Shown one piece after another: positions 16,074 through 63,233 of a DNA stretch of 64,000 nt (position 1 is its first letter; every line of letters begins with the position of its first letter). The translations under genes were made by a program, and so were the position numbers. This stretch comes from Patescibacteria group bacterium (GTDB taxonomy: Bacteria > Patescibacteriota > Microgenomatia > UBA10105 > UBA927). The DNA lies in assembly GCA_035510735.1 (NCBI GenBank), contig DATKGN010000008.1, positions 12,466 through 76,465 of the forward strand. The letters run 5' to 3'. The notes under the pieces were generated by a model that did not search any database, had not been told where the DNA came from, and worked only from the letters and a program-made list of their open reading frames with translations.

Positions 16074-16078
16074 AATAT

Positions 16079-17119: not shown

Positions 17120-17160
17120 AGAATTGATAAGCCCGCCGGAAATTAAGCCGTCCTGGACGA

Positions 17161-21503: not shown

Positions 21504-21521
21504 TTGACGGCCTTATTATAT

Positions 21522-30422
<8,901 letters not shown>

Positions 30423-31069: not shown

Positions 31070-31092
31070 TTATTGTGGTCCCACTTGTTACT

Positions 31093-31608: not shown

Positions 31609-31628
31609 TGTAACAAGTCCTCCCCGTG

Positions 31629-32309: not shown

Positions 32310-32376
32310 CGGGGTCAGGAATCTCATATATCAGGTATAATCAGTATGGCAAGACACCAAACAAAAAGCAACCAAT

Positions 32377-41984: not shown

Positions 41985-43610
41985 TCATTCGCTTCCGATT
42001 CTCTTCCATAATGCATCTCCCCACCCCGGCACCCGTGTGTAATGATCTTTAATATACGGGAAATCTGCAAGCTCCCATAACCTCCCGCTGTCTCCCTGAT
42101 AAATATACGGTACTTTCTTATCCTCTAACACCCCTCCAAGCGGCGCCGGAGGCCGTGAAAGAAACCGGACAAATTCACCGAACGGCAGACAGCAAATGTA
42201 ATATGCATCCTTCCAAAACATCATGCGGCCGTCCAGATCCAACACCTGGGATTGCGGAGGAACCATAGAGAGAAGCGTTTTGGTTTGAGAAAGCTGTACC
42301 GTATTGGACATCGAAAACTTGAGTGAGTTGACCTGTATAGCATCCTGTCCTAACAATAACGCGAAAAAGAGCAACACGATAACGACGCCGATATCTCCCG
42401 CATGACGACGAATCCACACCAATACTGACACAATGAAATCTGCCGCATACCACGCAATAAATATAGCAATAGGGATAAGATACTGGCTGTGTTTAAGCGG
42501 GAAAAAAACAACATACCCAAATACCGACAGAAAAAATATACCGCCGACGAGAAGTTCTGCGTATGTCCGTTTCCGATCCCCGCCTGCGGCGATAAACGGC
42601 GTTAAAAGTCTTAAACACCCGACCATAATACCGATAAACCAGAGCGTATGATTTGTAAGAAGCGGCCTCGTCACGCCCCATCCGCCGTAGAACGACGCAT
42701 TCGGGAAGAAAAATAAATGCGGTTCCATAATGTAAATACGGCCTATCGTGTTTGCCTCAAACGGCAGCTTGGTCAGTGAGTACCAAACGGTCGAAAAATG
42801 ACCGAGTGTGAGGAGATAAAGAAACAGTAAGACAAGCGGTGCCGCGAGTCCTGCGGCAAACATCCAATATTCCCGGGCAATCTTCCACGGAACGATCCGC
42901 TTCCGCTTAATAATGATCCCAACCCACTCAAAAAAACCGGCATCAAGAGCGGCAACCGCCACACCCATACCGACAAACGGCAGCGTTTTCACAAGAACGA
43001 CGAGTGACGCAGCGTACGAAAACCCGGCAGCCAACCATATGAGTATTCGTCGTTTATGCTCGGGGTGAAGCATACCATAAACCTGGAGCACAACCCCAAG
43101 AAGCCCCAAGAGCGCCGCGACGTTATCCGGCCGTATTTCCATATATTTATCAAACGGCATCGGCAAAAACGCGAGAATAACCATAGGGATAAGTGCGTAC
43201 CTTCTATTCCGAAGAAGCGCGAACAACACGCCGGTAAGAACAACCATAAGTGTGAATACGATAAACATGAAAACGCGTGCAGCCGTAAAGATCGCAACGC
43301 TTCTCCCAAGAATCCAAAAGAGCGGGATAAGCATCCAATAAAATCCTGGGGTGAAGAATGTGAAAAAATCAACGTACGGCTTCTGTCCCTGCGCCATATT
43401 AGCTGCCCAGTGGAGATGCGTAAATTCATCAACGTCAAAAAACCGTGTCAGACCGACCTGTAGGTGCCAATACAACAAAAACACCAATAGTCCTACTAAA
43501 ATAAGGCTCTCAAAAATGTATGCGAGAGACCGGGAATTCCACTTCATAGATTGATTGGTATAAATATATACTAGGGTCAGGGAAATAGGCAATCCACAAT
43601 TTTTCGCCAA
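41985..43610 (-). CDS. GT-C family membrane glycosyltransferase (putative)
   Basis: Polytopic 541 aa; FFDVDEFTHLHWA loop after first TM; start may be internal Met at ~43547. Confidence 0.45.
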   Translation of the reverse strand: MAKNCGLPISLTLVYIYTNQSMKWNSRSLAYIFESLILVGLLVFLLYWHLQVGLTRFFDVDEFTHLHWAANMAQGQKPYVDFFTFFTPGFYWMLIPLFWILGRSVAIFTAARVFMFIVFTLMVVLTGVLFALLRNRRYALIPMVILAFLPMPFDKYMEIRPDNVAALLGLLGVVLQVYGMLHPEHKRRILIWLAAGFSYAASLVVLVKTLPFVGMGVAVAALDAGFFEWVGIIIKRKRIVPWKIAREYWMFAAGLAAPLVLLFLYLLTLGHFSTVWYSLTKLPFEANTIGRIYIMEPHLFFFPNASFYGGWGVTRPLLTNHTLWFIGIMVGCLRLLTPFIAAGGDRKRTYAELLVGGIFFLSVFGYVVFFPLKHSQYLIPIAIFIAWYAADFIVSVLVWIRRHAGDIGVVIVLLFFALLLGQDAIQVNSLKFSMSNTVQLSQTKTLLSMVPPQSQVLDLDGRMMFWKDAYYICCLPFGEFVRFLSRPPAPLGGVLEDKKVPYIYQGDSGRLWELADFPYIKDHYTRVPGWGDALWKRIGSE

Positions 43611-44645: not shown

Positions 44646-46271
44646 ATGTCAAAAGATAGACCTTTATCACTCTTGCGTCAACACGCATTCACGATACTCT
44701 TTATCATTTTTTCGCTGTTCATTATCCGCAATGATATCGTTTACTACCGAAGCGTTTCACTGCGCGCCACACCGGATTTCTTTCCCGCCCACACTGTTGG
44801 AAATGCGGATGATTATCATCAATATATCTTTCTCATAAAAACAGGCCGCGAAGGCAAGTTGCTTTACCACAATGCGTATTCCGAAGAGCCCATACCCGAT
44901 GTTCTTCTCCAACCTATCTATAATGTCGTCGGATTGTTATCCCGACCATTTCCGGTCTCTCTGTATACTGTTTATTTCATATTTCATGTCGTATCTCTTA
45001 TTATTCTTTTTGTCAGTATATATTTACTTATCTCCCGGGTATTCAACCCGATTATACCGAAGATATTTGCCACAATTCTGTATTTTACGGCAATCGGTTT
45101 TTGGAGCATCGTGTCTTTTGCTCCGTTCCAAATCAAGAGGTATGATCTCGCGGATTATAACTTTGATCTTTTTTCAAAATTTCATGTCATCGCCCCGCAT
45201 CATAACATTGCGATTGCTCTCGTCATCCTTGTATTCATAGTGCTCACTTCCACCAAACACCACGCAGGTATTGTTGCGGGTTTGTTGAGTCTCCTATTAG
45301 GTCTCATCCACCCCTATATCCAACTCATGATGTTCTTAATGCTTTTCGCAAATGCACTCATTCAAACAATTTTGGAACGAAAACTGTTAACGCGCGCATT
45401 TAGAGATTTTTTTATTATTATCGTTATCTCATCACCGCTCATCGTCTATTATCTTTATCTCACCAATGTCATACTTCATTTTACTGTCGCTACTGACGGT
45501 ATTCTCACGTTTCTACCGAGAACAATATCGTTTCTTTCGTACCTTCAGGCGCTTGGTCCGCTTTTTATCTTTGCATTACCATCGCTCGTTTTCTTTATAT
45601 ATTCAAAACCGTATTCAATCATACGATTTCTTTTACTTTGGGCTTTTCTGCCGATTCTTCTGTTCTTTTTCCCTGATTTCCATCTGCCGTTTGCTGTATG
45701 GCGGCTCTCACAGATCTATCAGCACATTCCGCTTGCTATACTCGGTGCATATTGGGTATATATATTAATTCGGAACAAACGATTTGCTCTCTCTTTAATG
45801 ATACTCGTTGGCGGCATAACGCTCTTATATGGATTTACTGCATATAACTATGTATTCCAAGCCAGCGCAGACACCCATGATGCCGGTGGCTATATATTCA
45901 CTTACTATGTGCCGACACCAGTCATACATGCATTTACATATCTCGACCGGGAAACGCCCAGAGACTCAGTCGTTCTCGCAAGCCAGATGGTGTCAAGTAT
46001 GATTCCGTCGTTCACTCACAATCGCGTCATTATCGGACACAACGGCAATAACAGGGATTATTATCAGAAATTAGCTGAGGCTAACATGTTTTTTACCGGC
46101 ACGATGAGCTATGATGATGCCCACGCCTATCTTCTGAAACGTCATGTCTCATATATAATCTTCGGACTTGATATGCCGGGATTTACGGCAATGTCTTACG
46201 CCAATATGGGTTTTTTGAAACTCGTCTACGGGAACCCTTATGATATTTCAGTGGTGAAGGTGCTTCGATAA
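44646..46271 (+). CDS. polytopic membrane protein (possible glycosyltransferase/polymerase; unassigned)
   Basis: ~12 TM segments, C-terminal soluble domain; no diagnostic motif. Confidence 0.4.
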   Translation: MSKDRPLSLLRQHAFTILFIIFSLFIIRNDIVYYRSVSLRATPDFFPAHTVGNADDYHQYIFLIKTGREGKLLYHNAYSEEPIPDVLLQPIYNVVGLLSRPFPVSLYTVYFIFHVVSLIILFVSIYLLISRVFNPIIPKIFATILYFTAIGFWSIVSFAPFQIKRYDLADYNFDLFSKFHVIAPHHNIAIALVILVFIVLTSTKHHAGIVAGLLSLLLGLIHPYIQLMMFLMLFANALIQTILERKLLTRAFRDFFIIIVISSPLIVYYLYLTNVILHFTVATDGILTFLPRTISFLSYLQALGPLFIFALPSLVFFIYSKPYSIIRFLLLWAFLPILLFFFPDFHLPFAVWRLSQIYQHIPLAILGAYWVYILIRNKRFALSLMILVGGITLLYGFTAYNYVFQASADTHDAGGYIFTYYVPTPVIHAFTYLDRETPRDSVVLASQMVSSMIPSFTHNRVIIGHNGNNRDYYQKLAEANMFFTGTMSYDDAHAYLLKRHVSYIIFGLDMPGFTAMSYANMGFLKLVYGNPYDISVVKVLR

Positions 46272-47558
46272 AAATGACTCTACGATTGTTTTTATATACG
46301 TAATCATTGGTGGGGTAATTCCGGGATAAACTCCAATCCAAAATGCGTCGTTCATGAGTTTATCGGAATTGGTAAGGTCTTCTACTTTCCGGATATCCGG
46401 GCGGTTGAGATAGGCCGGATGACGGGTTAAGTTTCCTGCAAAGATGCTTCGTGTGGCAATTTTGTGATTTTCAAGATATTTTACTAATTCTAATTTGGCG
46501 AAGGGCGCTCCGTCTTTTACCACCAACGGGAATCCGAACCAACTCGGCTTTGCACCAACGAGCGGTTCAGGAAGAATAAAATAGTCTTGATATTTTGTAA
46601 AAAACAAATGTAATGCGGCAAAGTTTTCTCGCCTCTTTTTAATAAACCCTTTGAGCTTTTTAAGCTGTGCAAGACCAAGTGACGCCTGCATATCGGTAAG
46701 CTTCAGATTATAGCCAATTTGGGAATAGGTATATTTATGATCATAACCGTAGGGCAATTCCCCAAGCTTCCACCCGAAACGCATGCCACAGGTATTATCT
46801 TTTCCCGTGTCACACCAACAGTCGCGGCCCCAGTCCCTAAACTGCCGGATGGCGCGGTGAATCATATGATTGTTGGTCACAACTGCTCCCCCCTCGCCCA
46901 TCGTAATCTGATGCGCGGGGTAAAAGGAGAATGTTGCAATATGCCCGAATGTTCCTGCCAATTTTCCTTTATACTCCCCGCCTAATGCATCGCAACAATC
47001 TTCGATAAACCAAAGTTTATGTTTCTCAACGAGCGCCATGATGTCATCAAGCGGCATCAGGTTGCCGAGTGTATGGGCCATCATGATAACCTTCGTCTTC
47101 GGAGTGATGGCCTTTTCCAAATCCTTTGGGTTAACGTTTTTCGTGACTAAATCGTTATCAAGAAGAACGGCGGTACACCGGTTTTGAAGCGTCGGGTTAA
47201 CCGTCGTTGGGAATCCCGTGCCCACGGATATTACTTCATCCCCCGGCATAAGCGCCCGGTCGCGGAATATTTTCGACGTAAGTGACGTAAGCGCGACCAA
47301 ATTAGCGGATGATCCGGAATTGACCAGGGAAACATATTTCACCCCGAGGAATTTCCCGAATTCGCGTTCAAATTCCAGTGCAAACCGCCCCTCGGTCCAC
47401 CACCCATCCAATACCGCCTCAACACCACTCAGTAATTCCTTTTCATCAAACACTTTACCGGAAACGGGAACGGGTGAAACCCCGGGGACAAATTTCTTCT
47501 TTTGGAAGTTTTTCTTAGAATACCGTACAATCTGGTCAACGAGAGCTTTTGAAAGCAT
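46248..47558 (-). CDS. rfbH: CDP-6-deoxy-D-xylo-4-hexulose-3-dehydrase (RfbH/DdhC, PLP/PMP DegT-family)
   Basis: N-terminal KKKFVPGVSPVPVSGKVFDEKELLSGVEAVLDGWWTEGRFALEFEREF closely parallels RfbH; 436 aa as in RfbH. Confidence 0.75.
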   Translation of the reverse strand: MLSKALVDQIVRYSKKNFQKKKFVPGVSPVPVSGKVFDEKELLSGVEAVLDGWWTEGRFALEFEREFGKFLGVKYVSLVNSGSSANLVALTSLTSKIFRDRALMPGDEVISVGTGFPTTVNPTLQNRCTAVLLDNDLVTKNVNPKDLEKAITPKTKVIMMAHTLGNLMPLDDIMALVEKHKLWFIEDCCDALGGEYKGKLAGTFGHIATFSFYPAHQITMGEGGAVVTNNHMIHRAIRQFRDWGRDCWCDTGKDNTCGMRFGWKLGELPYGYDHKYTYSQIGYNLKLTDMQASLGLAQLKKLKGFIKKRRENFAALHLFFTKYQDYFILPEPLVGAKPSWFGFPLVVKDGAPFAKLELVKYLENHKIATRSIFAGNLTRHPAYLNRPDIRKVEDLTNSDKLMNDAFWIGVYPGITPPMITYIKTIVESFLSKHLHH

Positions 47559-49127: not shown

Positions 49128-49214
49128 AAAATGTGGATGAAATCAATATTATAGGCTATAATCTATACAATATAGGCTCCGTATTTATGAATCCAAATCA
49201 TCTTAACCCCACAA

Positions 49215-51149: not shown

Positions 51150-51810
51150 ATATTCCTTTCCATTTCATAAATACATCATACCGTTGTATTGACCTTTTAT
51201 ACCCCATCGGCGCCGTAATCCATTCTCCCCCATCTCGTGTTGTTCGATGGATAAGTCGTATGCGCTTTGTCTCAACAAATCCTAATTTATTATATAAACG
51301 CAATGCCCGCTCATTATCCGATGTCGTCTGGAGCGTGTATCCGTTGAGCCCAAACGTACTCATTCCCCACTGCATCATCTGCCGGATTGCCGCCGTCACA
51401 AGCCCCGGATACCCCTTGCGCCCACGGACAATATTGTCAATCTCACATGTTTTCTTTTCAAAATCAAACCGGTATAACCCAACATGACCTATATATGTAT
51501 CATGAACACGTATCATAAACAAGAGCCGGTCCTGTGTATTTATAACGTTATTTTTTAACCACCCCTTTGTCCGTTTGCGGGTCACCGGAAATTGCGTTGG
51601 AAACCACGTTTCATGTTTTTTCCTCCAGCGCGAAAGAAGGGCAACGATGTGATCATCAGTGATTGAATCGCGGGTAAGGAGTATAAGATCATAGTTCGTC
51701 CGGCGGATTATTCCCCGAATCGATACGGAGCCAAACGATTTGTTTTTCAATCGTGCGATGATTGCGCGTATCTTTTGTCCTGGTGGCGAAGAATATAAAG
51801 CGTCCTTCAT
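51136..51810 (-). CDS. GNAT family N-acetyltransferase
   Basis: IGHVGLY ... RGRKGYPGLVTAAIRQMMQW ... YNKLGFVE acetyl-CoA binding pattern. Confidence 0.6.
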   Translation of the reverse strand: MKDALYSSPPGQKIRAIIARLKNKSFGSVSIRGIIRRTNYDLILLTRDSITDDHIVALLSRWRKKHETWFPTQFPVTRKRTKGWLKNNVINTQDRLLFMIRVHDTYIGHVGLYRFDFEKKTCEIDNIVRGRKGYPGLVTAAIRQMMQWGMSTFGLNGYTLQTTSDNERALRLYNKLGFVETKRIRLIHRTTRDGGEWITAPMGYKRSIQRYDVFMKWKGIYEKA

Positions 51811-53594
51811 TCTTTCATCGCGGTCATTTTTTCAAATTCTTTGCGATCCAAAAACGGAAAAAGGTCTTCGTACGGTTTTGAAACAAGTCTGCCGTCGGGC
51901 ATTTTATCCGATGCAACACGCGGAATGATGAGTTGCCATTCAGGGGAAAGGACATCACAGACGACCGGCCCCTTGTACGAAAGGACTTCTTTGATTTTAC
52001 GATCCAATTCGCCCACATTCTTAATGCGCACTGCTTTTATCCCATATGCTTTGGCAATCTTCATGCTGTCAGGACACCAAAGCCCGCTTTTGGGACTCTC
52101 CCCCAATAATCGTCCTTCCATATGCACGCGCTGTGTATGGCGGATCAACAAATACCCGTTATTGTTGATAACGAATAATTTTATCGGTAATTTGTTATGT
52201 TTCATCGTTGCAAGCTCCTGCAAATTCATCTGCAGACAGCCGTCACCCGTCACGATAATCGTGTTCCCTTTCGGACGGGCCATGCATGCGCCGATGCCTG
52301 CCGGCCAATATCCCATCGTCGATATCCCACCGGTTGTCAAAAACCGCTGTCCTTTTTTAATTTTCCACGCCTGACATACAACATGAAACGGCGAACTCGT
52401 ATCCACGACGACCGTATCTTTTGATGACGCAAAGCGGGATAACCGATCACTTAAGTAATACGAATTCACCGTTTTTTCTTTTTTATATTCGGGGAGGGAC
52501 ATCGGATAACGTTTATTCCACAGATTACACCGGGCAATCCACGAGGCGTAGGAATGCAATTTTGTATGTGGTAACGACGCAAGGAGAAGTTCGAAAAATT
52601 GTTTTGCATCACCGTAAATTTTAACTGTAGGCTCAAGACCGGGTTTTTCAAGTTCTTTCGTATCGATATCAACGACGACTTTCATCGCCCGTCTGCCCCA
52701 ATCTTTCGCATCATAACCGACAATTCCCGGATCAAGCCGTGCGCCAACCGCGATAATGAGATCAGCAAGCTGTACGGCAAAATTCGCGGGCCGGTCACCA
52801 TACAGTCCGGGACGTCCCACAAATTGTCTGTTGTCTGATTCGATAAGATCAATACCTAACCGCGTCGTGATGACGGGCATATGCGTTTTACGTAAAAATG
52901 TTTGAGCAAGCTCTCTTGCGCCCGCAATATGCACGCCGTGTCCCAAAAGAAGAAGCGGACGTTTAGCATTGGTGAGAAGCGTCATTACACGCGCAACATC
53001 TTCTTTTTGTATAACCGGTAATACACGTTCGAATTCCGACGGATCAAAATGAAACGACATTTTTTCGGGCACCGTCATCCGTTGCGTATCAAGCGGCACT
53101 TCTATCCATACCGGCCCCGGCCGTCCATGGGTCGCCAGATAATAGGCTTTTTCCATGTGATACTGAATTTTTGCCGGGTCATCTATTGAAATAAAATATT
53201 TCGTCACCGTTTGTACAATGGGTTTGAGGTAAATACCCTGAAGTCCATATTGACGGATACCGGTTTTTTCCATGTAGGAGACGTTACCGGTTCCTGATTG
53301 CCCGGAAATCACCATCATGGGGGCAGAATCAACATATGCGCCGACAACCCCTGTTAACGCATTGATACCTGCCGGTCCGGCTGTCACCATGGCAACGCCG
53401 ATTGATTTCCCGATACGACCATACGCTTCAGCCGCCATGGCAGCTGCCTGTTCGTGATGATGAAAGATTGGGTGAATGCGTTTGTTTTTATATACCGCGT
53501 CGTTGAGGAACATCGCCTGACCGCCGGTTATCATAAATACCGTATCAACACCTTTTTGAGCGATAAAATCAACGATGTATTCTGCAATATTCAT
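51807..53594 (-). CDS. thiamine-pyrophosphate-dependent enzyme, acetolactate-synthase/YerE/Xsc family
   Basis: N-terminal TPP-enzyme pyrimidine-binding domain (ITGGQAMFLNDAV...HEQAAAMAAEAYGR), central domain, C-terminal TPP-binding GDGxx...NN motif region (VTGDGCLQMNLQELATM...VINNNGY). Confidence 0.75.
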   Translation of the reverse strand: MNIAEYIVDFIAQKGVDTVFMITGGQAMFLNDAVYKNKRIHPIFHHHEQAAAMAAEAYGRIGKSIGVAMVTAGPAGINALTGVVGAYVDSAPMMVISGQSGTGNVSYMEKTGIRQYGLQGIYLKPIVQTVTKYFISIDDPAKIQYHMEKAYYLATHGRPGPVWIEVPLDTQRMTVPEKMSFHFDPSEFERVLPVIQKEDVARVMTLLTNAKRPLLLLGHGVHIAGARELAQTFLRKTHMPVITTRLGIDLIESDNRQFVGRPGLYGDRPANFAVQLADLIIAVGARLDPGIVGYDAKDWGRRAMKVVVDIDTKELEKPGLEPTVKIYGDAKQFFELLLASLPHTKLHSYASWIARCNLWNKRYPMSLPEYKKEKTVNSYYLSDRLSRFASSKDTVVVDTSSPFHVVCQAWKIKKGQRFLTTGGISTMGYWPAGIGACMARPKGNTIIVTGDGCLQMNLQELATMKHNKLPIKLFVINNNGYLLIRHTQRVHMEGRLLGESPKSGLWCPDSMKIAKAYGIKAVRIKNVGELDRKIKEVLSYKGPVVCDVLSPEWQLIIPRVASDKMPDGRLVSKPYEDLFPFLDRKEFEKMTAMKE

Positions 53595-53611
53595 GTATGA
53601 ATTACACACCT

Positions 53612-54762: not shown

Positions 54763-54774
54763 AGCTGGTATTCA

Positions 54775-54866
54775 TGTCATTGCGAGACCGTTCTTACGGC
54801 GTGGCAATCCATCTTATTATAGAGATTGCTTCGTCTTCGCCAATTGGCGTATCCTCGCAATGACAA
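54775..54866. repeat. palindromic MITE/REP-like element (copy 3 of 3)
   Basis: TGTCATTGCGAGACCGTTCTTACGGCG ... CTCGCAATGACAA; 5' arm is the reverse complement of the 3' arm of copy 2. Confidence 0.65.
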
Positions 54867-54875
54867 CTGATACGC

Positions 54876-55763: not shown

Positions 55764-55794
55764 ACGGCGTATGGAGTTGTATTATATGGTCCTT

Positions 55795-56760
55795 TTACCT
55801 TATTTTCTTTATGTTCACGGTTGTTCTCACAATATAGCGCGGCCGCCGTTTAACTTCCAAAAATATTTTCGCCAAATATTCAGCAATAACACTCAACGAT
55901 AATAGCTGCACACCCCCTAAAAATAAAATGAGTATAACAACGGTGGGTATCCCCCTGGGGGAATTATGAAACAGGATAATAGTAACAAGATCAAAAACCA
56001 TAAGAAGAAAAGTAAAAATCATAACAAAAAATGCGATAGTTGATATCCACTCCAGTGGTTTGAACGAAAAATTAACAAGTATTGTTTTTGCCCACCAGAA
56101 TCCCGAAAGGACGCTTTCATTTGTTTGACCGTGAGAACGCGCGTCGCGCACATACGGAACACCGATTTGTTTGAACCCTACGTATGCACGAAGACATCTG
56201 AGATAATAATCATATTCATCAATCGCCAATAATTCATCTACGACCCGCCGATCAAGAAGCGAAAAATCACCGGCATCAAGTGGAATACTAATATATGCCA
56301 ATTTGTTGAGGACATAATAAAACCCTTTATACAGCATGTTCCATATGATTCCGTAGCCTTTACGGGAAGTCCGTACGCCATACACCACCGAATACCCCTG
56401 TTTCCACCGCTCAACAAATTTTGATAAGAGTTCCGGGGGATCCTGAATATCTCCATGAAGAAGAAACGCCATATCACCCGTTGAATATTCCAGTCCCGCA
56501 AGGAAGCTTGGCTGCGGCGAGCCAAAATTGCGGCTCATAACAATGAGCTTGACGCGTCGATCCTTCTTTGTGAGACGAAGGTAAATTTTTTCTGATCTGT
56601 CCGTTGACGCATTGTCTACATAGATCAATTCAAAGTCGTAGCGTGGAATTTTTTTAAAAACGGCAACAATCCTGCGATACATCTCTTCAATATTTTCTTC
56701 CTCGTTATAACACGTAACGATGATGGATATACGTTTCTTTTTCATGATCCTTAATGTCAT
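55795..56760 (-). CDS. family 2 glycosyltransferase (polyprenol-phosphate glycosyltransferase, ArnC/GtrB-like) with C-terminal TM helices
   Basis: ISIIVTCYNEEENI ... YVDNASTD ... two C-terminal TM helices. Confidence 0.7.
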   Translation of the reverse strand: MTLRIMKKKRISIIVTCYNEEENIEEMYRRIVAVFKKIPRYDFELIYVDNASTDRSEKIYLRLTKKDRRVKLIVMSRNFGSPQPSFLAGLEYSTGDMAFLLHGDIQDPPELLSKFVERWKQGYSVVYGVRTSRKGYGIIWNMLYKGFYYVLNKLAYISIPLDAGDFSLLDRRVVDELLAIDEYDYYLRCLRAYVGFKQIGVPYVRDARSHGQTNESVLSGFWWAKTILVNFSFKPLEWISTIAFFVMIFTFLLMVFDLVTIILFHNSPRGIPTVVILILFLGGVQLLSLSVIAEYLAKIFLEVKRRPRYIVRTTVNIKKIR

Positions 56761-56781
56761 CCTCGGGCTTGACCCGAGGAT
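56759..56781. promoter_or_regulatory. perfect 10-bp-stem hairpin between rfbG-like gene and GT2
   Basis: ATCCTCGGGC ttga GCCCGAGGAT. Confidence 0.4.
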
Positions 56782-57771
56782 CTATTCTTTATGTTTTATG
56801 GATTCCCGATTAGGTCGGAATGACAAAAACATACTGCTTTTTTTATACCATTTATATGTCTCCTTTAATCCTTTTTCGAGTGAATACGCTGGTTTCCATC
56901 CAAGCCCAGCGATTTTACTCCAGTTCAAATGCTGATATGGTATCTCATTTTTCTGATTATTATCAATCTGGTGCGGAACGGATATACGAAGTATCTTCTG
57001 CGCCCTCTTTATAAGATCAAGGACAGAAATATTTGTATCACTCGCAACATTAAACACCTCTCCCTTAATCTCATCTACATGATCTTCTAAAAATACATAT
57101 GCCGAAACGACATCGCCGACATATACATAATCCCTCATAAATGTGCCGTCGCTTCTCAGATGAAGTGTTTCGTGAGTTAGCGCGGCATTCATAATCCCGG
57201 GTATAATTCGCGACATATTAAGATCCCCGCCACCATAAATATTACCAAACCGAACGGTAACGACGGGCGCTCCATACGTTTTCACATAGGCTTTCGTCAC
57301 CATGTCTCCGGCGGCTTTACTTGCTTCATAGGGATGATCCCCCAGTAAGGGACTATCTTCCGTATACGTTTCGCTGCTTTTCCCGTATGCTTTATCGGAT
57401 GAAGTAATGATAATCCTGCGTACGGTGCCGCTATTCAACGCTGCATCGAGTATATGCGTTGTCCCTAAGACATTAGTCGTAATTGTCTCCACAGGATTGT
57501 AGTAAGCCGTATCAACAATCGGTTGAGCAGCGAGGTGAAAGATATCTTCTATTTCGTATTTGGTAACAATATCGGCTATTCTTCTTCGATCTGTAACGTC
57601 TCCATTCGCGAGAATTACTTTTTTTTCTAGTCCCCGGGTAACAAAATACGACTGCGGGTCAAGACTCCTGTACGGCACAACGACACGCGCTCCCCTTTTG
57701 ACGAGTTCTTCAACTAAATGACTTCCGACAAACCCCGTCCCGCCGGTGACTAAAATTCTACGTCCGTTCAT
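56782..57771 (-). CDS. rfbG: CDP-glucose 4,6-dehydratase (RfbG/DdhB-like extended SDR)
   Basis: ILVTGGTGFVGSHL, FHLAAQPIV (AAQP), TSSDKAYG, HPYEASKAAGDM, FGNIYGGGD — matches CDP-glucose 4,6-dehydratase rather than dTDP-type. Confidence 0.7.
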   Translation of the reverse strand: MNGRRILVTGGTGFVGSHLVEELVKRGARVVVPYRSLDPQSYFVTRGLEKKVILANGDVTDRRRIADIVTKYEIEDIFHLAAQPIVDTAYYNPVETITTNVLGTTHILDAALNSGTVRRIIITSSDKAYGKSSETYTEDSPLLGDHPYEASKAAGDMVTKAYVKTYGAPVVTVRFGNIYGGGDLNMSRIIPGIMNAALTHETLHLRSDGTFMRDYVYVGDVVSAYVFLEDHVDEIKGEVFNVASDTNISVLDLIKRAQKILRISVPHQIDNNQKNEIPYQHLNWSKIAGLGWKPAYSLEKGLKETYKWYKKSSMFLSFRPNRESIKHKE

Positions 57772-57975
57772 AATAGAGTCTCCCGATTGGTATATAAACA
57801 TGCACAACCCTTCTGTTTTCGTGTGGGATAAAAGAGTTTCCGATTATTAAATGAGCACGTGCAAACCCGAGCCAATTGCCTCGAATTATCAACCAAAGGG
57901 ATACATTTGAGGAGAAAATATACCACAAAGAAAACTCCGGCAAGTGCGAATTAAATAATCGGGAAACTCCCCGTG

Positions 57976-58758
57976 TTAGTCCTTCCATACTTTCCACTGT
58001 GGGCCGGTTTTCCAAAAGGTGTTGAGATTCGTAACGTCTGCATATGTATCCATCGCATGCCAAAATCCATTATGGACGTAAAGCGATAACTCATGATTTT
58101 TCACTAAGCGGTGTAATGCGGCATGATCAAATTCTCCGGGTCGAATGTAGTCAAAAAATTTCTTTTTGAAAATCATATACCCGCCGTTCACCCATTCCCG
58201 GAGGGACGGCTTCTCCACAAACTGTGTAACTCCGTTCTTTTCGTCAATGCGGACCTGTCCGAACCGGGACCGCGGGTGAACTCCGGTGATAGTTCCAACT
58301 AAGTTATGTTTACGGTGAAAAGCCACAAGTTTTTTAATATCAACATCTCCCAAACCATCACCATACGTCACCATAAAATCCTCATCTTCTTTCGGAATAT
58401 AATCGCGGACGCGGAGTATCCGTTCTCCCGTTAATGTTTCCTGACCCGTATCAACGAATGTAATGGTAAAATCATCTATCCCCTCTCCAGCTGACGCGCG
58501 GTGTATATGTGTCCTGCCGCTTTTCGTGTGAAGCGTAAAGTCGTGGAGGAAATATTTTTGATTCAGAAAATAATCCTTGATGTAATCTCCTTTATACCCA
58601 AGCGCGATAATAAATTCGTTAAAACCGAAGTGACTGTATATTTTCATGATATGCCAGAGAATCGGTTTATTGCCGATGAGGACCATGGGCTTTGGTTTAA
58701 ATTCCGTTTCTTCTTTTAACCGGTATCCGATTCCACCGCAGAGTATCACTGTTTTCAT
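57976..58758 (-). CDS. rfbF: glucose-1-phosphate cytidylyltransferase (RfbF/DdhA)
   Basis: MKTVILCGGIGYRLKEETEFKPKPMVLIGNKPILWHIMKIYSHFGFNEFIIALGYKG nearly colinear with RfbF N-terminus. Confidence 0.85.
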   Translation of the reverse strand: MKTVILCGGIGYRLKEETEFKPKPMVLIGNKPILWHIMKIYSHFGFNEFIIALGYKGDYIKDYFLNQKYFLHDFTLHTKSGRTHIHRASAGEGIDDFTITFVDTGQETLTGERILRVRDYIPKEDEDFMVTYGDGLGDVDIKKLVAFHRKHNLVGTITGVHPRSRFGQVRIDEKNGVTQFVEKPSLREWVNGGYMIFKKKFFDYIRPGEFDHAALHRLVKNHELSLYVHNGFWHAMDTYADVTNLNTFWKTGPQWKVWKD

Positions 58759-58799
58759 GGTGAGGTCATTATAAAGAACTAAACACCAAAAGCAAGAGC

Positions 58800-60485
58800 C
58801 TAACTATTATTTCTTTGTATCAAATTATGCTTTCGTAAATAGGTAACAATTTTTTGTACACTCATCATCCGCGATTGATGTGCCGTATTGATTGTCATCT
58901 CGGGATGTTTTGGTTTTTCATACGGATCATCAACACCGGTAACTCCCTTAATCTCACCCATCTCCTGGCGTTTATACAATCCTTTCACATCCCGTTTCCG
59001 ACAAACTGATAAGGGTGTGGCCACATACACTTCAACATATGTCCCATACGTTTTGATAAGCTGGCGATTAACTAATCTTGGTTCTTCATACGGAGCAACA
59101 ACAGCGCAAATGGCAATACCTCCGTGTTTTGTTATTTCAGAAGCAACAAATCCGATCCGTTTAATATTTGTGTCTCTGTCTTCTTTGGAAAATCCTAATC
59201 CTTTTGAAAGATTCCGTCTTACAACATCACCATCAAGGATGGTTACTTTTTTATCCTGGATTTCGATGAGTTGACTATAAAGCATTTGTGCTATCGTTGA
59301 TTTTCCTGCACTGGGCAATCCGGTAAAAAATACCGTCAGACCTCTTTTTGCATCTCGCACAGCCCCCGCCCTAAGTTCCCGAACTACCTCGGGAAATGAT
59401 ATCCACTCAGGTACTTGTGACTTCGAGCGGATAAGTTTCCTGAGTTTAGTTCCCGATATTTTTTTCACCTGCACGTTTTTGGAAACGTCCTGAATCTGCA
59501 TATATATTTTTTTATCCGTCCGGTACACCATTTCTTTAAACGGAATTATTATCATATCAAGTTCCGGTGCAAAATGACCGACTAACTCTTCCGCGTCGTA
59601 ATGACCGTAAAAAGGTCGCCCTGATTTGTCTTCTCCAGGTCCTGCATGATCCCGTCCGACGATAAAATGGGTGCATCCGTAGTTCTTCCGAATTATCGCG
59701 TGCCAGAGCGCTTCCTTCGGTCCCGCCATCCGCATCGCAAGAGGCAATAAACTCAACGTTGCGAACTGTTGCATATGACGCGTATAAACCGCAATATATG
59801 AACGGACGCGGGTCACGTAATCAATATCGCCGTCTTTTGTGACACCCACCGACGGATGAAAGAGTATATGGGCGTGATACTCATGGGCTGCCTGTTGCAT
59901 CATCGCAAAATGGACTTTATGGATCGGGTTTCTGGTTTGAAAACCGATAACTGATTCCCATGTATGTTTACGAAAATATGACCGCAGCTCCTGCGGGGTA
60001 TGCCGGTACTGTGCAAAATCGAACCGGTCTACGCGTGATATTCCTTTCAAAGTTCCGCCTAAATAATAGTCACCGGTTTCTTTGAGAAGATACTGTACAC
60101 CATAATGATCAGTATTCGTTGTACCGTAAACCAACTTTGCTTCCTGCTTTTTATCGGGGTGATATATGGAATTGATAGTAAATTTTGCAACCGGTTTACC
60201 GTACTGGTCACATAGAACAACGCTCATCCCACCCCGGTACGGACTAATATCGGGAACATCCAGCACCACAGGGATCGGCCAAAGTGTCCCATTCTTTAAC
60301 CGCATATTCTTGATAACGCTCTCGTATTCTTCTTCTTCGAGAAAACCGGTAAGTGGTAAAAAGGAGCTATCGAGAATTAATTCAAGGTCGCATAATTGCC
60401 GTGCATTAAGGTACACACGCGGAAGAGAAAATATTTCGCGTACGAGTTCCTTCTGTTCATTCCCATTCGTAAATAAATTTTTCAC
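58800..60485 (-). CDS. bifunctional sulfate adenylyltransferase / adenylylsulfate kinase (PAPS synthesis)
   Basis: ATP-sulfurylase GFQTRNPIHKVH and GRDHAGPG motifs; C-terminal APS-kinase P-loop FFTGLPSAGKST and DGD. Confidence 0.8.
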   Translation of the reverse strand: MKNLFTNGNEQKELVREIFSLPRVYLNARQLCDLELILDSSFLPLTGFLEEEEYESVIKNMRLKNGTLWPIPVVLDVPDISPYRGGMSVVLCDQYGKPVAKFTINSIYHPDKKQEAKLVYGTTNTDHYGVQYLLKETGDYYLGGTLKGISRVDRFDFAQYRHTPQELRSYFRKHTWESVIGFQTRNPIHKVHFAMMQQAAHEYHAHILFHPSVGVTKDGDIDYVTRVRSYIAVYTRHMQQFATLSLLPLAMRMAGPKEALWHAIIRKNYGCTHFIVGRDHAGPGEDKSGRPFYGHYDAEELVGHFAPELDMIIIPFKEMVYRTDKKIYMQIQDVSKNVQVKKISGTKLRKLIRSKSQVPEWISFPEVVRELRAGAVRDAKRGLTVFFTGLPSAGKSTIAQMLYSQLIEIQDKKVTILDGDVVRRNLSKGLGFSKEDRDTNIKRIGFVASEITKHGGIAICAVVAPYEEPRLVNRQLIKTYGTYVEVYVATPLSVCRKRDVKGLYKRQEMGEIKGVTGVDDPYEKPKHPEMTINTAHQSRMMSVQKIVTYLRKHNLIQRNNS

Positions 60486-60503
60486 CGTGGCGATTATAAC
60501 AAG

Positions 60504-61010
60504 TTAGAGCAAGGAATTGATGTGCTTTTCTGGAAATATCTGACGAAAAAGAATCAGAAGATATTCCCGTACCGAATAAAATGAAATGTGATTTTTTTCA
60601 TATGCCCCCCTTTTGTACATGATTTCGCCAGTTGATAACAAACGGTTGATGCGGCATTTCACGATACTCGCCCGATTGTATCGTCGGGTCAATTGTTGAC
60701 GGGTTAATCCGCTCCTCCCTGCCGTTACAATTTCGGCTAATATACGAAGTGTCAATGACGCCTCAACGGCGCTATAGACGCCAAAGACAAACAGCGCCAC
60801 CATAAGAAGATATAGCGTCATCCAATAAATAAGTTCATTCAGTCCAAAATAACGCGATAGATACCACCCCTCTCCGATTCCTATGATCACACACGCTCTA
60901 ACTACCCAATGGAGCGCTTCATCCTGTGCGGTCATGTGGAAAAGGACAATAAGTGTGAGAATAAATAAAATAAACGATGTTAATGCCATTATTACAATTT
61001 GATAATCCAT
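60504..61010 (-). CDS. small membrane protein (paralog pair, unknown function)
   Basis: 3-4 TM helices plus basic ~60-aa C-terminal domain; same architecture as adjacent ORF. Confidence 0.4.
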   Translation of the reverse strand: MDYQIVIMALTSFILFILTLIVLFHMTAQDEALHWVVRACVIIGIGEGWYLSRYFGLNELIYWMTLYLLMVALFVFGVYSAVEASLTLRILAEIVTAGRSGLTRQQLTRRYNRASIVKCRINRLLSTGEIMYKRGAYEKNHISFYSVREYLLILFRQIFPEKHINSLL

Positions 61011-61012
61011 AA

Positions 61013-61498
61013 TTACTCGGTCATCGACCGATGAAAAACCCGCTGATACAGACTAATACAATAAATACTCGCTCTCCCCTTCGTGGTCGTTATGTACTTC
61101 GCCCGACGTACTTCAATTAACCCGCTCCTTTTTAAGTCGTCTACCCGTTTCCAGAATAAACCGGAGTCTGTAAATAAGTGCATCAGATCCGCCTCTGTTT
61201 GACGTTTTTTCTTTTTAAAAGATGCAAGTATCATCGACGCGGGCGTTTCTCCACCTAAGTAAGGACCAAGATAAAAAAGAGAGGCCGTCAGAGCCAAAAG
61301 CATATACAAAACCAGTGAAGTAAAAACATAGTGTGATGGCCTAAGCAGCACATACGCACACATGACGCATCCTCCGGGAATATATACCGTCAAGCTAATG
61401 AGTGGATCGTATCTGATACGCTGCATCCACCTATGAACGATACTGTGGGCGGAAAAGGTCAGAATAAAAATTCCGACTGTTATGACGAATGTGTTCAT
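61013..61498 (-). CDS. small membrane protein (paralog pair, unknown function)
   Basis: 3-4 TM helices plus basic C-terminal domain. Confidence 0.4.
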   Translation of the reverse strand: MNTFVITVGIFILTFSAHSIVHRWMQRIRYDPLISLTVYIPGGCVMCAYVLLRPSHYVFTSLVLYMLLALTASLFYLGPYLGGETPASMILASFKKKKRQTEADLMHLFTDSGLFWKRVDDLKRSGLIEVRRAKYITTTKGRASIYCISLYQRVFHRSMTE

Positions 61499-61598
61499 AC
61501 AGGCTAGCGTGAGTAAATCACGGAGGGCCGCAATTTGTCAAATCATATGGATAAAAATTCCGATCACATAAGCTGTTTTTGTAGGATATAATGGATGC

Positions 61599-63233
61599 AT
61601 GTTCTTAACGAAAAAAACCGGATTAATCATCGTAATAGTGCTTCTTATTCTGATGTTCGCTTTTATCATCAAAGAAATTTTTCCGTATGCAAATGTCCTT
61701 TGGGACGAAGCAGAATTCTTACTTCAAACGTATTGGACCGTGAAACCGATCCAACTTCATGATTGGGTCGGAGTATTGACGCAACTCCATAATCAAATTA
61801 GTTATCCTCCGCTTCAATATGCGATATTAGCACCCATTCTGGATGTAATCGGATTCAGTATTGAAAAAGCGCGGATAGTGTCTATGATATTCCCTTTTAT
61901 CACCGGGGTACTCATATATGTTCTCGGAATTCAGGTCGGCCAATCTGTGTTTTCTACAAAAAAGCAATTGCCACAGCTCGTTGGACTTCTTGCTGTCGTT
62001 TTTTTTGTCACATCACCGGTCTTACTATATCTCCATACAATAATTCTCAAGGAACCAATGTCGACAACGTGGACCATCTTAGCAATTCTTGTTTATTTTA
62101 AGGCCCGCACGTCGAAGAAACTCCAATGGTTCTTATTAACTGGAGTTTTGGTCGCAATTTCGTTTCTGACGAAATATCCTTACGGCATCATGAATTTGGC
62201 TTTTTTTGGTATAGAAGCGTGTATTAGTCTAGTAACCGCAAAAAATGGGAAAGAACGTGTACATCTCATTACTTCACATTTACTCATTCTTCTTCCGGTC
62301 GTAATCGGAGCGCTCTTATGGGTGGCAACGTCTCCTGAACGGTTCAATCAATTTTTGTACATTATAGAAAATAATGAAATTCCGAACGAAATGGCAGGAT
62401 GGGATTTGCCGACGTATCTGTTTTATTATCCCAAAGGAATCGTTTACATGTATGGCATAACCATTCCGGTCGGCATCGTTCTTTTGGCATCTTTTATATT
62501 TTCAACGCAATATATAAAAAAACTGAAACCCCGATTATTGTGGTTATCATTTGTTACCTACGTTATTTTTTTAACACCTCATATGATCAACTTACAGGAG
62601 CGCTATATTGCTCCCGTGTCACCCGGTTTATTCATCCTTGTGTCAATCGTCCTTATTGATGTTGTAAGACGATCATTCAAATCTCCTCTTTGGACACGTA
62701 TCGTCGTTTGTACTCTGGCTATCGGATTGGGAATCCATATACTCATAAGTCTTAAGAATCTGCCAATTCGCGTCTATGACGTCGGCACAAAAACAATTTT
62801 CGCCATCGCATTCAACCAACCGGATGTTAATCCCACATGGTTTGATTACAACACGGCGGCTTGGGGGAAGCTCTCTCCCGCGCTCGCAACGGAAAATCCA
62901 AAAGATATTCTTACGTGGGTCTTCAATCGCATCGATACAACGAAACCCGTCTACGTAAAAGGCAGATTTACGGAACTCTCTCCCCCGTATTTCCTTTTAT
63001 CCGTATTAACAGAGAAAGATCATTCAAAACCAAAAAATCTTCCCTATAAAGAATATTATGTTACCCTGACAGTTCTTCCGACCTCGCGATACTATACCCA
63101 TGAATATCGCCTGATCAATGAGTGGGTCCAGTGGGAGGTTCAGACAACAGCGGCAGATCCGAGTTTGACTCTGGTGGACGCGAAGACATTTAAACAACTT
63201 GGTATCAGCGTTTCTATTTACGGCAGACTGTAA
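61599..63233 (+). CDS. GT-C family membrane glycosyltransferase (ArnT/PMT-like)
   Basis: Polytopic 544 aa; NVLWDEAEF DE-loop after first TM. Confidence 0.55.
   Translation: MFLTKKTGLIIVIVLLILMFAFIIKEIFPYANVLWDEAEFLLQTYWTVKPIQLHDWVGVLTQLHNQISYPPLQYAILAPILDVIGFSIEKARIVSMIFPFITGVLIYVLGIQVGQSVFSTKKQLPQLVGLLAVVFFVTSPVLLYLHTIILKEPMSTTWTILAILVYFKARTSKKLQWFLLTGVLVAISFLTKYPYGIMNLAFFGIEACISLVTAKNGKERVHLITSHLLILLPVVIGALLWVATSPERFNQFLYIIENNEIPNEMAGWDLPTYLFYYPKGIVYMYGITIPVGIVLLASFIFSTQYIKKLKPRLLWLSFVTYVIFLTPHMINLQERYIAPVSPGLFILVSIVLIDVVRRSFKSPLWTRIVVCTLAIGLGIHILISLKNLPIRVYDVGTKTIFAIAFNQPDVNPTWFDYNTAAWGKLSPALATENPKDILTWVFNRIDTTKPVYVKGRFTELSPPYFLLSVLTEKDHSKPKNLPYKEYYVTLTVLPTSRYYTHEYRLINEWVQWEVQTTAADPSLTLVDAKTFKQLGISVSIYGRL

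Follow-up and report, generated by a model that had tools for sequence, protein, structure and literature searches.

A complete PAPS synthase beside a pair of small membrane proteins in a glycan locus of a Patescibacterium

Described systems that resemble the locus

A dedicated supply of PAPS for sulfated glycoconjugates is provided by NodPQ together with NodH in Sinorhizobium, and by CysDNC together with Stf0 in Mycobacterium. The same activated sulfate can be made by a single chain with a PUA-like domain, an ATP sulfurylase and an APS kinase, an architecture that serves sulfate assimilation in Aquifex and fungi. In Penicillium chrysogenum, the APS-kinase-like domain is allosteric and has a regulatory role only. 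In three-component glycosylation systems, small membrane proteins such as ArnE/ArnF and GtrA flip polyprenyl-phosphate sugars.

The locus described here lies in a window of 64 kb, which is the whole stretch of DNA analysed from an uncultured Patescibacterium and forms part of a 184-kb contig; a further 7.7 kb beyond the window was also covered. As in the NodPQ/NodH and CysDNC/Stf0 systems, a gene for PAPS synthesis is found among glycan or glycolipid genes and not with genes for cysteine synthesis, and in Patescibacteria relatives it adjoins genes for a PAPS-dependent sulfotransferase and CysQ. Unlike the GTPase-coupled NodPQ and CysDN, the Patescibacteria enzyme is a homo-oligomeric Sat-CysC fusion, and unlike both described systems the window holds no sulfotransferase partner.

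Next to the PAPS synthase gene are two adjacent genes for paralogous small membrane proteins, A and B, an arrangement that recalls ArnE/ArnF. The likeness to the Arn system extends to the operon, which has an ArnC/GtrB-like GT2, ArnT-like GT-C transferases and DegT-family enzymes. However, structural models give A and B three TM helices rather than the four of ArnE/ArnF and GtrA, with an extra cytoplasmic winged helix of ~80 aa. The C-terminal 75-85 residues have the helix-helix-helix-hairpin order of MarR, GntR/YtrA, ArsR, HxlR and HTH_45 domains, but unlike the small winged-helix regulators, A and B carry this domain fused to an N-terminal 3-TM bundle and occur as an obligate paralogue pair.

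The PAPS synthase and its surroundings

Three co-directional and tightly packed ORFs on the minus strand span 58800-61498. Protein A (61013..61498, 161 aa) is encoded by the first gene of the operon, protein B (60504..61010, 168 aa) by the second, and the PAPS synthase (58800..60485, 561 aa, GTG start) by the third. An earlier note, made from the sequence alone, had called this last protein a bifunctional ATP sulfurylase/APS kinase, and profile searches agree. Pfam detects PUA_2 (8e-41, residues 2-150), ATP-sulfurylase (8e-76, 159-372) and APS_kinase (1.7e-56, 381-532), and the NCBIfam equivalog NF004040, 'bifunctional sulfate adenylyltransferase/adenylylsulfate kinase', is matched at 746.9 bits, above its cut-off of 669. 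The protein is identical to NCBI HUD19809.1 from a Patescibacteria MAG, to which the NCBI annotation already assigns the same function.

The 561-aa protein is a complete Aquifex-type PAPS synthase, with the motifs of both catalytic domains intact. The ATP sulfurylase motifs QTRNPIHKVH and VGRDHAGPG align to those of the P. chrysogenum enzyme 1I2D (patterns QxRNPxHxxH and GRDHAG), and the APS-kinase P-loop GLPSAGKST and the LDGD motif follow the same pattern as the Aquifex aeolicus SAT/APS kinase 2GKS. The Aquifex protein has the same order of PUA-like, ATP sulfurylase and C-terminal APS kinase domains; it matches the window enzyme over its full length with E = 6e-151, and is the best match for the kinase domain (E = 2e-56). 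The best overall PDB match is the P. chrysogenum ATP sulfurylase (1I2D/1M8P, E = 8e-152), which shares the three-domain layout; in its C-terminal domain, though, the P-loop is degenerate (GYMNSGKDAIA) and LLGD stands in place of LDGD. Because the window enzyme keeps GLPSAGKST and LDGD, its APS-kinase domain is predicted to be catalytic and the enzyme bifunctional, such that sulfate and 2 ATP would be converted to PAPS. Compared with the 81%-identical enzyme of a sister MAG, the gene has a dN/dS of 0.11, indicative of purifying selection, although this value is rough because dS between the two genomes (1.1-1.7) is near saturation.

The earlier note placed the PAPS synthase amid glycan genes, and the neighbouring ORFs bear this out. 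Downstream on the minus strand are genes for an RfbF-like glucose-1-phosphate cytidylyltransferase (57976..58758; Pfam NTP_transferase, with TIGR02623 at 280.7 bits, just below the cut-off of 300), an RfbG-like CDP-hexose 4,6-dehydratase of the SDR type (56782..57807; Pfam Epimerase and GDP_Man_Dehyd) and a GT2 with two C-terminal TM helices, which resembles the polyprenyl-phosphate sugar synthases PgfS, ArnC and GtrB (55795..56760; Pfam Glycos_transf_2, with NCBIfam PgfS at E = 6e-69 and ArnC at E = 1e-34, both under cut-off). Upstream and on the plus strand, divergent from A, is a PMT_2 or ArnT-like GT-C glycosyltransferase gene (61599..63233; Pfam PMT_2, E = 2.7e-9). Its position is identical in the sister MAG (L003), as is that of the PAPS synthase between A/B and rfbF.

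Two further minus-strand genes extend the sugar chemistry. RfbH, the CDP-4-keto-6-deoxyglucose 3-dehydrase (E1) of the same sugar pathway (46248..47558), matches the NCBIfam equivalog NF011936 at 632.8 bits against a cut-off of 423. A ThDP-dependent, acetolactate-synthase-like enzyme (51807..53609; N, M and C domains of Pfam TPP_enzyme) scores under every acetolactate synthase equivalog cut-off and is a candidate sugar C-branching enzyme; ThDP enzymes 36-38% identical to it are present in the sulfation cassettes of two related loci (L018 and L020). In all, the window holds at least five GT2 genes and two GT-C genes, the latter assigned either by a PMT_2 match or through homology to a protein that has one; another four large polytopic membrane proteins lack a Pfam match. 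The downstream chemistry of the locus consists of DmpF/DmpG, a GNAT and two DegT genes, and is unlike that of the loci in relatives that carry a sulfation cassette.

A and B are 2 nt apart, B and the PAPS synthase 18 nt, and the PAPS synthase and rfbF 41 nt. None of these gaps holds a terminator-like site, and the PAPS synthase is probably co-transcribed with the CDP-hexose glycan operon. A 100-bp divergent intergenic region (61499..61598), read directly from the sequence between A on the minus strand and the GT-C gene on the plus strand, is the probable promoter region for these four genes; a promoter is inferred here rather than detected, because a scan for promoters and terminators gave no signal above chance. 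The PAPS synthase, wedged between A/B and rfbF, would thus be transcribed with them from the region upstream of A.

Partners for PAPS in relatives and in the window

Of six related loci from Patescibacteria, five (L018, L020, L022, L023 and L024) have a Sulfotransfer_3 gene directly after the PAPS synthase gene; in L024 the Sulfotransfer_3 gene is known from a downstream fragment that reads PVFILGSGRSGTR. The cassette in these relatives is made up of a NeuB-cupin fusion, sometimes CysQ, the PAPS synthase, the Sulfotransfer_3 protein and a methyltransferase. The CysQ-like Inositol_P gene is found directly upstream of the PAPS synthase in L020 and L023. All five sulfotransferase-linked loci carry rfbF, rfbG, GT2 and GT-C genes. 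Given that five of the six loci pair the enzyme with Sulfotransfer_3 inside a glycan locus, glycan sulfation is the natural role of this clade of Patescibacteria PAPS synthases, which would be dedicated to modification of glycans and not to sulfur assimilation. In an NJ tree, rough and with no support values, the enzymes of the window and of the sister MAG nest within the sulfotransferase-linked clade, next to that of L024.

The domain architecture by itself would also suit a housekeeping equivalent of CysDN/CysC that feeds cysteine synthesis and lies in a glycan locus by chance, given that Aquifex and fungi use it for assimilation. The earlier note held that an adjacent assimilatory operon would point to such a role. 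Neither the window nor the adjoining 7.7 kb contains cysH or cysJI. Moreover, the Pfam families PAPS_reduct and NIR_SIR, which cover PAPS/APS reductase and sulfite reductase, have no match in the real window ORFs, the 7.7 kb beyond or the six related contexts, and cysteine synthase is likewise absent from all three. In contrast to the Aquifex enzyme, the one in the window is encoded within a glycan operon, in a Patescibacterium with a reduced genome, and its relatives are paired with sulfotransferase and CysQ and not with assimilation genes. To our knowledge, Patescibacteria generally lack sulfate assimilation, which also counts against this explanation, and a housekeeping role is highly improbable.

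The window does not contain a recognisable sulfotransferase, as the earlier note had stated. Pfam sulfotransferase families have no match in any real window ORF of at least 150 aa, a Sulfotransfer_3 profile from the relatives finds nothing in a six-frame scan of the window with filters off (best E = 0.35), and tblastn with the relatives' sulfotransferase is negative against the window, L001 and L003. The CysQ-like protein of L020, used as a tblastn query, reaches no better than E = 0.35 in the window, and no PAP phosphatase was found. Sulfotransferase, CysQ and sulfate transporter are all absent from the 64 kb and the adjoining 7.7 kb, so that glycan sulfation in this organism is a proposal rather than a finding.

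A sulfotransferase of unrecognised type might still be encoded in the window, either by one of the ORFs 47611-48444, 48441-49127 and 49215-49895 or by a large membrane protein. Novel sulfotransferase families continue to be described, and the locus and its vicinity include several ORFs for which Pfam, NCBIfam and PDB give no match. However, no candidate has a 5'-PSB-like motif or, even in the unfiltered scan, matches the Sulfotransfer_3 profile, and the region 47611-49895, proposed earlier as a place to look, gives no sulfotransferase signal in Pfam or profile searches. The first of its ORFs has a HELGH motif of the metallopeptidase type and matches Peptidase_M78 weakly, the second has a weak YkoP match, and all three are in a low-GC stretch (0.377 versus about 0.45) that looks like an insertion. 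A hidden transferase in the window is thus improbable.

If the glycan is sulfated, the transferase must be encoded outside the window; otherwise, the cassette has decayed. Under the latter explanation, the sulfotransferase, NeuB-cupin fusion and methyltransferase were lost, the local glycan is not sulfated, and the PAPS synthase serves another need, such as the supply of PAPS or APS to a transferase that acts on non-glycan substrates, or nucleotide or sulfate handling. The PAPS synthase is indeed the only cassette member left in the locus of both the window genome and the sister MAG, and the partners found in five relatives are missing from the window and the sister contig. In a Levybacteria locus, too, the PAPS synthase stands alone, without a transferase gene less than 10 kb away, so the enzyme may serve purposes unrelated to a local glycan. 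The divergent downstream chemistry of the window locus fits decay as well. Yet the gene is intact, with all motifs and a rough dN/dS of about 0.11, and its position in the glycan operon is kept in two genomes at 66-95% protein identity. Furthermore, PAPS has no known use where both sulfotransferase and PAPS reductase are absent. Decay of the cassette is therefore rather unlikely, albeit easier to accept than a hidden transferase.

The preferred explanation, to which we assign a probability of about 0.5, is that a working PAPS synthase supplies O-sulfation of a glycan by way of a sulfotransferase encoded outside the 64-kb window, and that A and B are a separate accessory of the glycosylation module. 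PAPS would most likely be used to sulfate a cell-surface glycan, or a nucleotide- or lipid-linked precursor of it. The sulfated glycan proposed in the earlier note is plausible for this organism because the enzyme nests in the sulfotransferase-linked clade and is under purifying selection. The complete PAPS synthase in a glycan operon and the Sulfotransfer_3 genes of five of six relatives speak for the proposal, and the lack of a transferase in the window speaks against it.

Proteins A and B

The paralogy of the two adjacent membrane proteins was also noted earlier. By pairwise alignment, A and B are 24% identical over 108 aa (E = 1e-3), and comparison of A-only and B-only profiles by hhalign gives 96.6% probability over 140 columns (E = 5e-10); by these alignments, A and B are judged to be true paralogues, but ancient and remote ones. 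Neither protein reaches the threshold of any Pfam or NCBIfam family, and the family of A, with 1008 cluster representatives at E <= 1e-3, has no model in either database. The dN/dS values, rough given the near-saturated dS, are 0.15 for A and 0.08 for B.

Three or four TM helices and a basic C-terminal domain had been suggested for these proteins. The AF2 models support three helices and not four, and predict for each protein a cytoplasmic winged helix as the C-terminal domain. The model of A (pLDDT 74) has three TM helices, followed by a winged helix that DSSP assigns as H84-96, H102-108, H111-124, E128-131 and E134-137. The model of B (pLDDT 87) consists of H2-26, H29-52, H57-96, H104-110, H114-127, a hairpin at 130-139 (wing strands E130-133 and E136-139) and H145-158, and the end of H57-96 supplies helix 1 of the winged helix. 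The top Foldseek matches of B are all winged-helix domains, with probabilities up to 0.98 but E values of at least 0.13, which are not significant. The best structural neighbours of the C-terminal domain are GntR, IclR, ArsR and MarR regulators, and O-methyltransferases are also among the matches. Sequence hints for A are weak, to HxlR (3DF8, E = 0.088) and to Sso10a, and Pfam HTH_45 is matched by 17 of 113 family members (best E 6.8e-5). Protein A has the junction motif LGGETPAS, and one Arg of the third helix does not vary among 113 sequences of both paralogue types. The combination of 3 TM helices and a winged helix is found in no PDB entry and no Pfam family.

A sulfotransferase fold had been suggested as a search target for 60504-61498, and A and B were proposed as candidate sulfation partners. 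As sulfotransferases they were rejected, because the models are all-helical 3-TM bundles with a winged helix and not an alpha/beta P-loop-like fold. The structural neighbours are winged helices and include no sulfotransferases, and neither protein has a PSB-like motif or matches the relatives' Sulfotransfer_3.

Gene neighbourhoods also separate the pair from sulfation. B-type orthologues adjoin A in 11 loci, always in the order A then B. In four of these modules (L007, L013, L014 and L015), the order is GT-C, A, B, rfbF, rfbG and GT2, and in L008 the pair directly precedes rfbF; A and B thus occur with no visible PAPS synthase in at least five loci, as judged on the visible sequence only. Conversely, L020 and L023 have cassettes of PAPS synthase and sulfotransferase but no A/B. 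Because the fold differs, and because the pair and the PAPS synthase cassettes each occur separately, A and B are partners of the glycosylation module or sugar-export machinery, and not of sulfation.

Conservation around the pair is considerable. Its most constant downstream neighbour in other loci is rfbF, at 74-82% identity, followed by rfbG in L007, L014, L015 and L018, with GT2 copies 71-73% identical after rfbG in L014 and L015. The order GT2, A, B is found in L018 and L022. The window also encodes a 541-aa, GT-C-like polytopic membrane protein (41985..43610, minus strand) that has no Pfam match of its own and is linked by homology to the relatives' proteins 5' of A/B. Orthologues 50-55% identical directly precede A in L007, L013 and L014, all loci with no visible PAPS synthase, and in L015 one further membrane-protein gene intervenes. 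A distant homologue is present in L018, and its counterpart in L022 matches PMT_2 weakly. The start and stop codons of A/B and the preceding GT-C or GT2 gene overlap in L013, L014, L018 and L022.

In the preferred reading, A and B, an obligate pair, belong to a three-component glycosylation module as a conserved accessory. In such a module, RfbF and RfbG would produce a CDP-deoxyhexose, the GtrB/ArnC-like GT2 would load the sugar onto polyprenyl phosphate, and the GT-C enzymes would transfer it outside the cell. Our best guess is that A and B act as a heterodimeric membrane adaptor or a flippase-like component, in the slot of GtrA or ArnE/ArnF. This suggestion comes from the gene neighbourhood and from an empty flippase slot, given that the window shows no recognisable flippase of the GtrA, Wzx or MurJ type. 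In L020, which lacks the pair, a MurJ-family gene adjoins the GT-C gene. The Pfam families GtrA (PF04138), EamA and SMR are not matched by B at E <= 10, or by A, B and 113 family members at E <= 0.01.

An equally good fit for the winged helix would be a membrane-tethered regulator that binds DNA. A and B would then sense a membrane or envelope signal and regulate transcription of the glycan operon from outside the glycosylation machinery, as might be expected from the regulators among the structural neighbours, the HTH_45 and HxlR matches within the family, and the position of A in the window as the first gene after the divergent intergenic region. However, TM3 passes without a break into the opening helix of the winged helix, which places this domain at the membrane surface, and the invariant Arg in both paralogue types speaks for a shared ligand more than for varied operators. 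The pair is operon-internal and translationally coupled to GT-C or GT2 in most loci, and winged helices can also mediate dimerisation, as they do in the O-methyltransferases that were among the structural matches. A regulatory role is less likely, and a place for A and B within the glycosylation module is preferred.

The PAPS synthase and its glycan locus

Three open reading frames, all in the same direction on the minus strand, fill positions 58800-61498: protein A (61013-61498, 161 aa), protein B (60504-61010, 168 aa) and the PAPS synthase (58800-60485, 561 aa). An rfbF-like gene (57976-58758) lies downstream of the PAPS synthase. The successive gaps between the four genes are 2, 18 and 41 nt, and no terminator-like site was found between them. 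A divergent gene for a PMT_2 GT-C glycosyltransferase begins 100 bp upstream of A, and a promoter and terminator scan of 55500-62000 gave matches at chance level only.

The 561-aa protein contains the Pfam domains PUA_2, ATP-sulfurylase and APS_kinase, scores 746.9 bits against the NCBIfam equivalog NF004040 (cut-off 669), and has both ATP sulfurylase motifs, QTRNPIHKVH and GRDHAG. Its kinase domain is best matched by the truly bifunctional enzyme from Aquifex (2GKS). Unlike the Penicillium enzyme, in which the P-loop and LDGD of the regulatory domain are degenerate, it retains GLPSAGKST and LDGD. The dN/dS is about 0.11, with dS near saturation, against the 81%-identical orthologue in the sister MAG (GCA_964385705.1, L003/L009), a value comparable to that of the adjoining genes. 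We infer from these sequence features that the enzyme is functional, and its activity is predicted. The PAPS synthase is in short a known, ordinary enzyme, identical to HUD19809.1 on a 184-kb contig of the MAG 'Patescibacteria group bacterium', and its existing NCBI annotation as a bifunctional sulfate adenylyltransferase/adenylylsulfate kinase is correct.

The surrounding glycan locus spans about 32-64 kb of the window and encodes RfbF-like, RfbG-like and RfbH proteins, the last above its equivalog cut-off, together with a ThDP enzyme, DmpF/DmpG-like proteins, a GNAT protein and two enzymes of the DegT family. It also has several GT2 genes, one of them PgfS/ArnC-like with C-terminal TM helices, and genes for several large polytopic GT-C-like membrane proteins. 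An E3 (RfbI) reductase partner of RfbH was not seen in the window. The DmpG-like 4-hydroxy-2-oxovalerate aldolase and DmpF-like acetylating acetaldehyde dehydrogenase genes (53716-55763) adjoin the ThDP enzyme inside the sugar operon, in an arrangement kept in the sister MAG (L003). This pairing is unusual for a glycan locus, and it may supply or process a two-carbon or pyruvate unit in the making of a branched dideoxyhexose of the yersiniose type.

Pfam analysis of every real ORF in the window found no sulfotransferase, PAPS reductase, sulfite reductase or CysQ family, and rescanning of the unassigned ORFs at E <= 10 still gave no sulfotransferase. A profile HMM of the relatives' Sulfotransfer_3 proteins, run on all six frames of the window with filters off, had a best E of 0.35. 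Motif regular expressions across the window were negative, as was tblastn with the relatives' sulfotransferase against the window, the sister contig (L003) and the sequence that reaches 7.7 kb past the window end (L001). This added 7.7 kb holds only further glycan genes. The description in the earlier note of a PAPS synthase in a glycan locus with no local sulfotransferase therefore stands, and the assimilation genes for which it proposed a check are absent from the window ORFs as judged by Pfam.

The same note had put forward the ORFs at 47611-49895 for a search for sulfotransferase folds. The stretch contains three family-less hypothetical ORFs between a DegT gene and rfbH; none has a sulfotransferase motif or match, and PDB sequence searches with the three returned chance matches only. 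The ORFs at 49215-49895 and 47611-48444 are unrelated to one another. The latter carries a HELGH metallopeptidase-type motif and a weak match to Peptidase_M78 (IrrE-like), and the ORF at 48441-49127 matches YkoP weakly. The GC content is 0.377 here, against about 0.45, and the stretch resembles an island that was inserted.

A putative sulfation cassette in related loci

Patescibacteria, namely Levy-, Woese-, Pace-, Kaiser-, Uhr- and Zambryskibacteria, account for most of the nearest named homologues of the PAPS synthase. The operon also occurs on the sister contig CAYLQG010000031.1 (GCA_964385705.1; L009, the same as L003), with 66-95% protein identity over the seven genes compared. That record is titled 'uncultured Gammaproteobacteria bacterium', a label that is probably wrong, given that the source of the window and most named homologues of the PAPS synthase are Patescibacteria.

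Six non-sister contexts of the PAPS synthase were compared. In five of them a gene for a Sulfotransfer_3 protein of 277-278 aa, with the 5'-PSB-type motif GSGRSGTR, lies directly 3' of the PAPS synthase, and a NeuB and Cupin_2 fusion of about 516 aa is encoded upstream. These cassettes are found at L024:2786-6466, L022:8414-13696, L023:7676-13678, L018:8451-13762 and, in Woesebacteria, L020:7642-13728, and their PAPS synthases are 65, 62, 61, 60 and 54% identical to that of the window, respectively. A methyltransferase of about 390 aa comes after the sulfotransferase in L018, L020, L022 and L023, and a CysQ-like Inositol_P gene is present in L020 and L023. Further downstream, L018, L020 and L022 encode a ThDP enzyme, an epimerase, a HAD hydrolase and a GT2. 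The gene rfbF occurs in L018, L020, L022 and L023, with rfbG as well where the sequence extends far enough; the L024 sequence stops inside the sulfotransferase gene, short of any position for rfbF or rfbG. In the sixth context, from Levybacteria (L016/L017), the PAPS synthase stands alone.

A rough neighbor-joining tree places the window and sister enzymes beside that of L024, within the sulfotransferase-linked clade. The comparison supports the idea that this clade of PAPS synthases serves glycan sulfation, and it shows the window to hold a pared-down version of the cassette. The window enzyme is probably a member of a glycan-sulfation system by ancestry, and the most parsimonious account is that its lineage lost or moved all of an ancestral cassette but the PAPS synthase. 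Relocation or loss of the gene most simply explains the absent sulfotransferase. The sulfated glycan that had been proposed for this locus is thus backed by the relatives' cassettes and by the tree, although no transferase is encoded locally. More broadly, the recurrence of a PAPS synthase, sulfotransferase and CysQ cassette within CDP-hexose loci suggests that a CDP-derived deoxyhexose glycan is sulfated in some lineages of Patescibacteria. Sulfate might serve either as the last decoration or as a leaving group.

The A/B family and its possible role

Pairwise, A and B are 24% identical (E = 1e-3), and separate A-only and B-only profiles align with 96.6% probability (E = 5e-10, 140 columns); on this profile evidence, the two are ancient paralogues. 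The window contains no second A/B pair. An exhaustive HMM search for the family returned 1008 cluster representatives with E <= 1e-3, of which 181 reached E <= 1e-10. Among the 150 matches listed, nearly all are 150-185 aa and matched over their full length, and the remainder are mostly shorter fragments. The family is covered by no Pfam or NCBIfam model.

AlphaFold models of A (pLDDT 74) and B (pLDDT 87, from a 113-sequence alignment) have three TM helices. The third continues directly into a winged helix of helix-helix-helix-hairpin topology, after which comes a terminal helix. The positive-inside rule would place the winged helix in the cytoplasm. Foldseek gave no significant neighbour and none that spans the entire architecture; the neighbours listed are all winged-helix domains, from GntR, IclR, ArsR, MarR, MotA, Z-alpha and O-methyltransferase dimerisation domains, and Pfam HTH_45 is matched by 17 of 113 family members. 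A regulator tethered to the membrane would have such a fold and is a serious alternative to the flippase or adaptor role considered below, if itself on the doubtful side. A role as sulfotransferases or sulfate permeases is rejected, both on the fold and on the occurrence of the pair where no PAPS synthase is visible.

Wherever one of the two was found, in 11 loci in all, B comes directly after A. A scan of metagenomes yielded five A-type loci, and a scan of genome contigs yielded the 15.8-kb sister contig only. Three of the loci (L007, L013 and L014), in which A is about 40% identical to that of the window, encode in order a GT-C-like protein, A, B, rfbF, rfbG and a PgfS-like GT2, with no PAPS synthase within the visible sequence. 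The GT-C-like protein is the orthologue of that at 41985-43610 in the window. L015 has one more membrane-protein gene, placed between the GT-C-like gene and A, and in L008 rfbF comes directly after B. Encoded on the opposite strand, a toxin-antitoxin-like pair of 83 and 93 aa sits between B and rfbF at L013:5770-6299 and in the same region of L014, the sole interruption of the A-B-rfbF junction seen in loci without a PAPS synthase.

In two of the loci with a sulfation cassette (L018 and L022), the A/B pair is found 6 kb downstream of that cassette, ahead of rfbF and overlapping a GT2 gene at the latter's stop codon. In L020 and L023 the cassette is present with no A/B in the sequence seen, and a MurJ-family gene adjoins the GT-C gene in L020. 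These contexts make A and B partners of the CDP-hexose, polyprenyl-phosphate and GT-C module rather than of PAPS synthesis. The suggestion that they are partners in sulfation is contradicted by the winged-helix fold and by the finding of pair and cassette each without the other in the sequence seen.

No GtrA, Wzx or MurJ flippase is recognisable in the window, nor is an intergenic GtrA-like small ORF; A and B are the sole small multi-TM ORFs. The locus follows an Arn/Gtr-like logic, with ArnC/GtrB-like GT2 and ArnT-like GT-C enzymes, and with A and B as adjacent paralogues in the manner of ArnE/ArnF. A and B are, however, unlike GtrA and ArnE/F in sequence and in TM number. Given the lack of a recognisable flippase and the logic of the locus, the preferred hypothesis, drawn from the gene neighbourhood, is that A and B form a heteromeric flippase-like or adaptor component. 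In its fullest form, to which we give a probability of about 0.2, they would represent a novel type of heteromeric membrane component, its winged helices apposed to the membrane, in the three-component glycosylation systems of Patescibacteria. The pair would be a flippase or escort for polyprenyl-phosphate-sugar that docks the CDP-sugar/GT2 machinery, as a counterpart of ArnE/ArnF or GtrA, and the CDP-deoxyhexose glycans would be O-sulfated in the same lineages by the PAPS synthase, Sulfotransfer_3 and CysQ cassette.

Glycans and other features of the cell surface

Patescibacteria (CPR) are ultra-small bacteria, mostly attached to host cells, and their surface glycans are therefore the likely point of contact with the host. 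Full-text literature searches returned no account of PAPS, of sulfotransferases or of sulfated glycans in CPR. Of more interest than the PAPS synthase itself are the cassette that recurs in CDP-hexose loci and the A/B family, which is large and unannotated and offers a specific candidate, open to test, for the membrane component of these glycosylation modules.

Just outside the glycan locus lie three type IV pilin-like genes with the N_methyl motif (30551-32327) and genes for ComEC, ComEA and a competence protein of metallo-beta-lactamase fold (15162-17892), typical surface and DNA-uptake equipment of Patescibacteria. A giant ORF of 2972 aa (21504-30422) carries extended collagen triple-helix repeats (Pfam Collagen, E = 6.5e-74) and an N-terminal match to a phage-integrase SAM-like domain; the GC content is higher in this part of the window (0.55), and an 843-bp low-GC gap precedes the ORF. 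The arginyl-tRNA synthetase encoded at 6100-8526 is, at 808 aa, far above the usual length, and the match to its catalytic domain falls into two separate parts, suggesting that the enzyme carries a large insertion.
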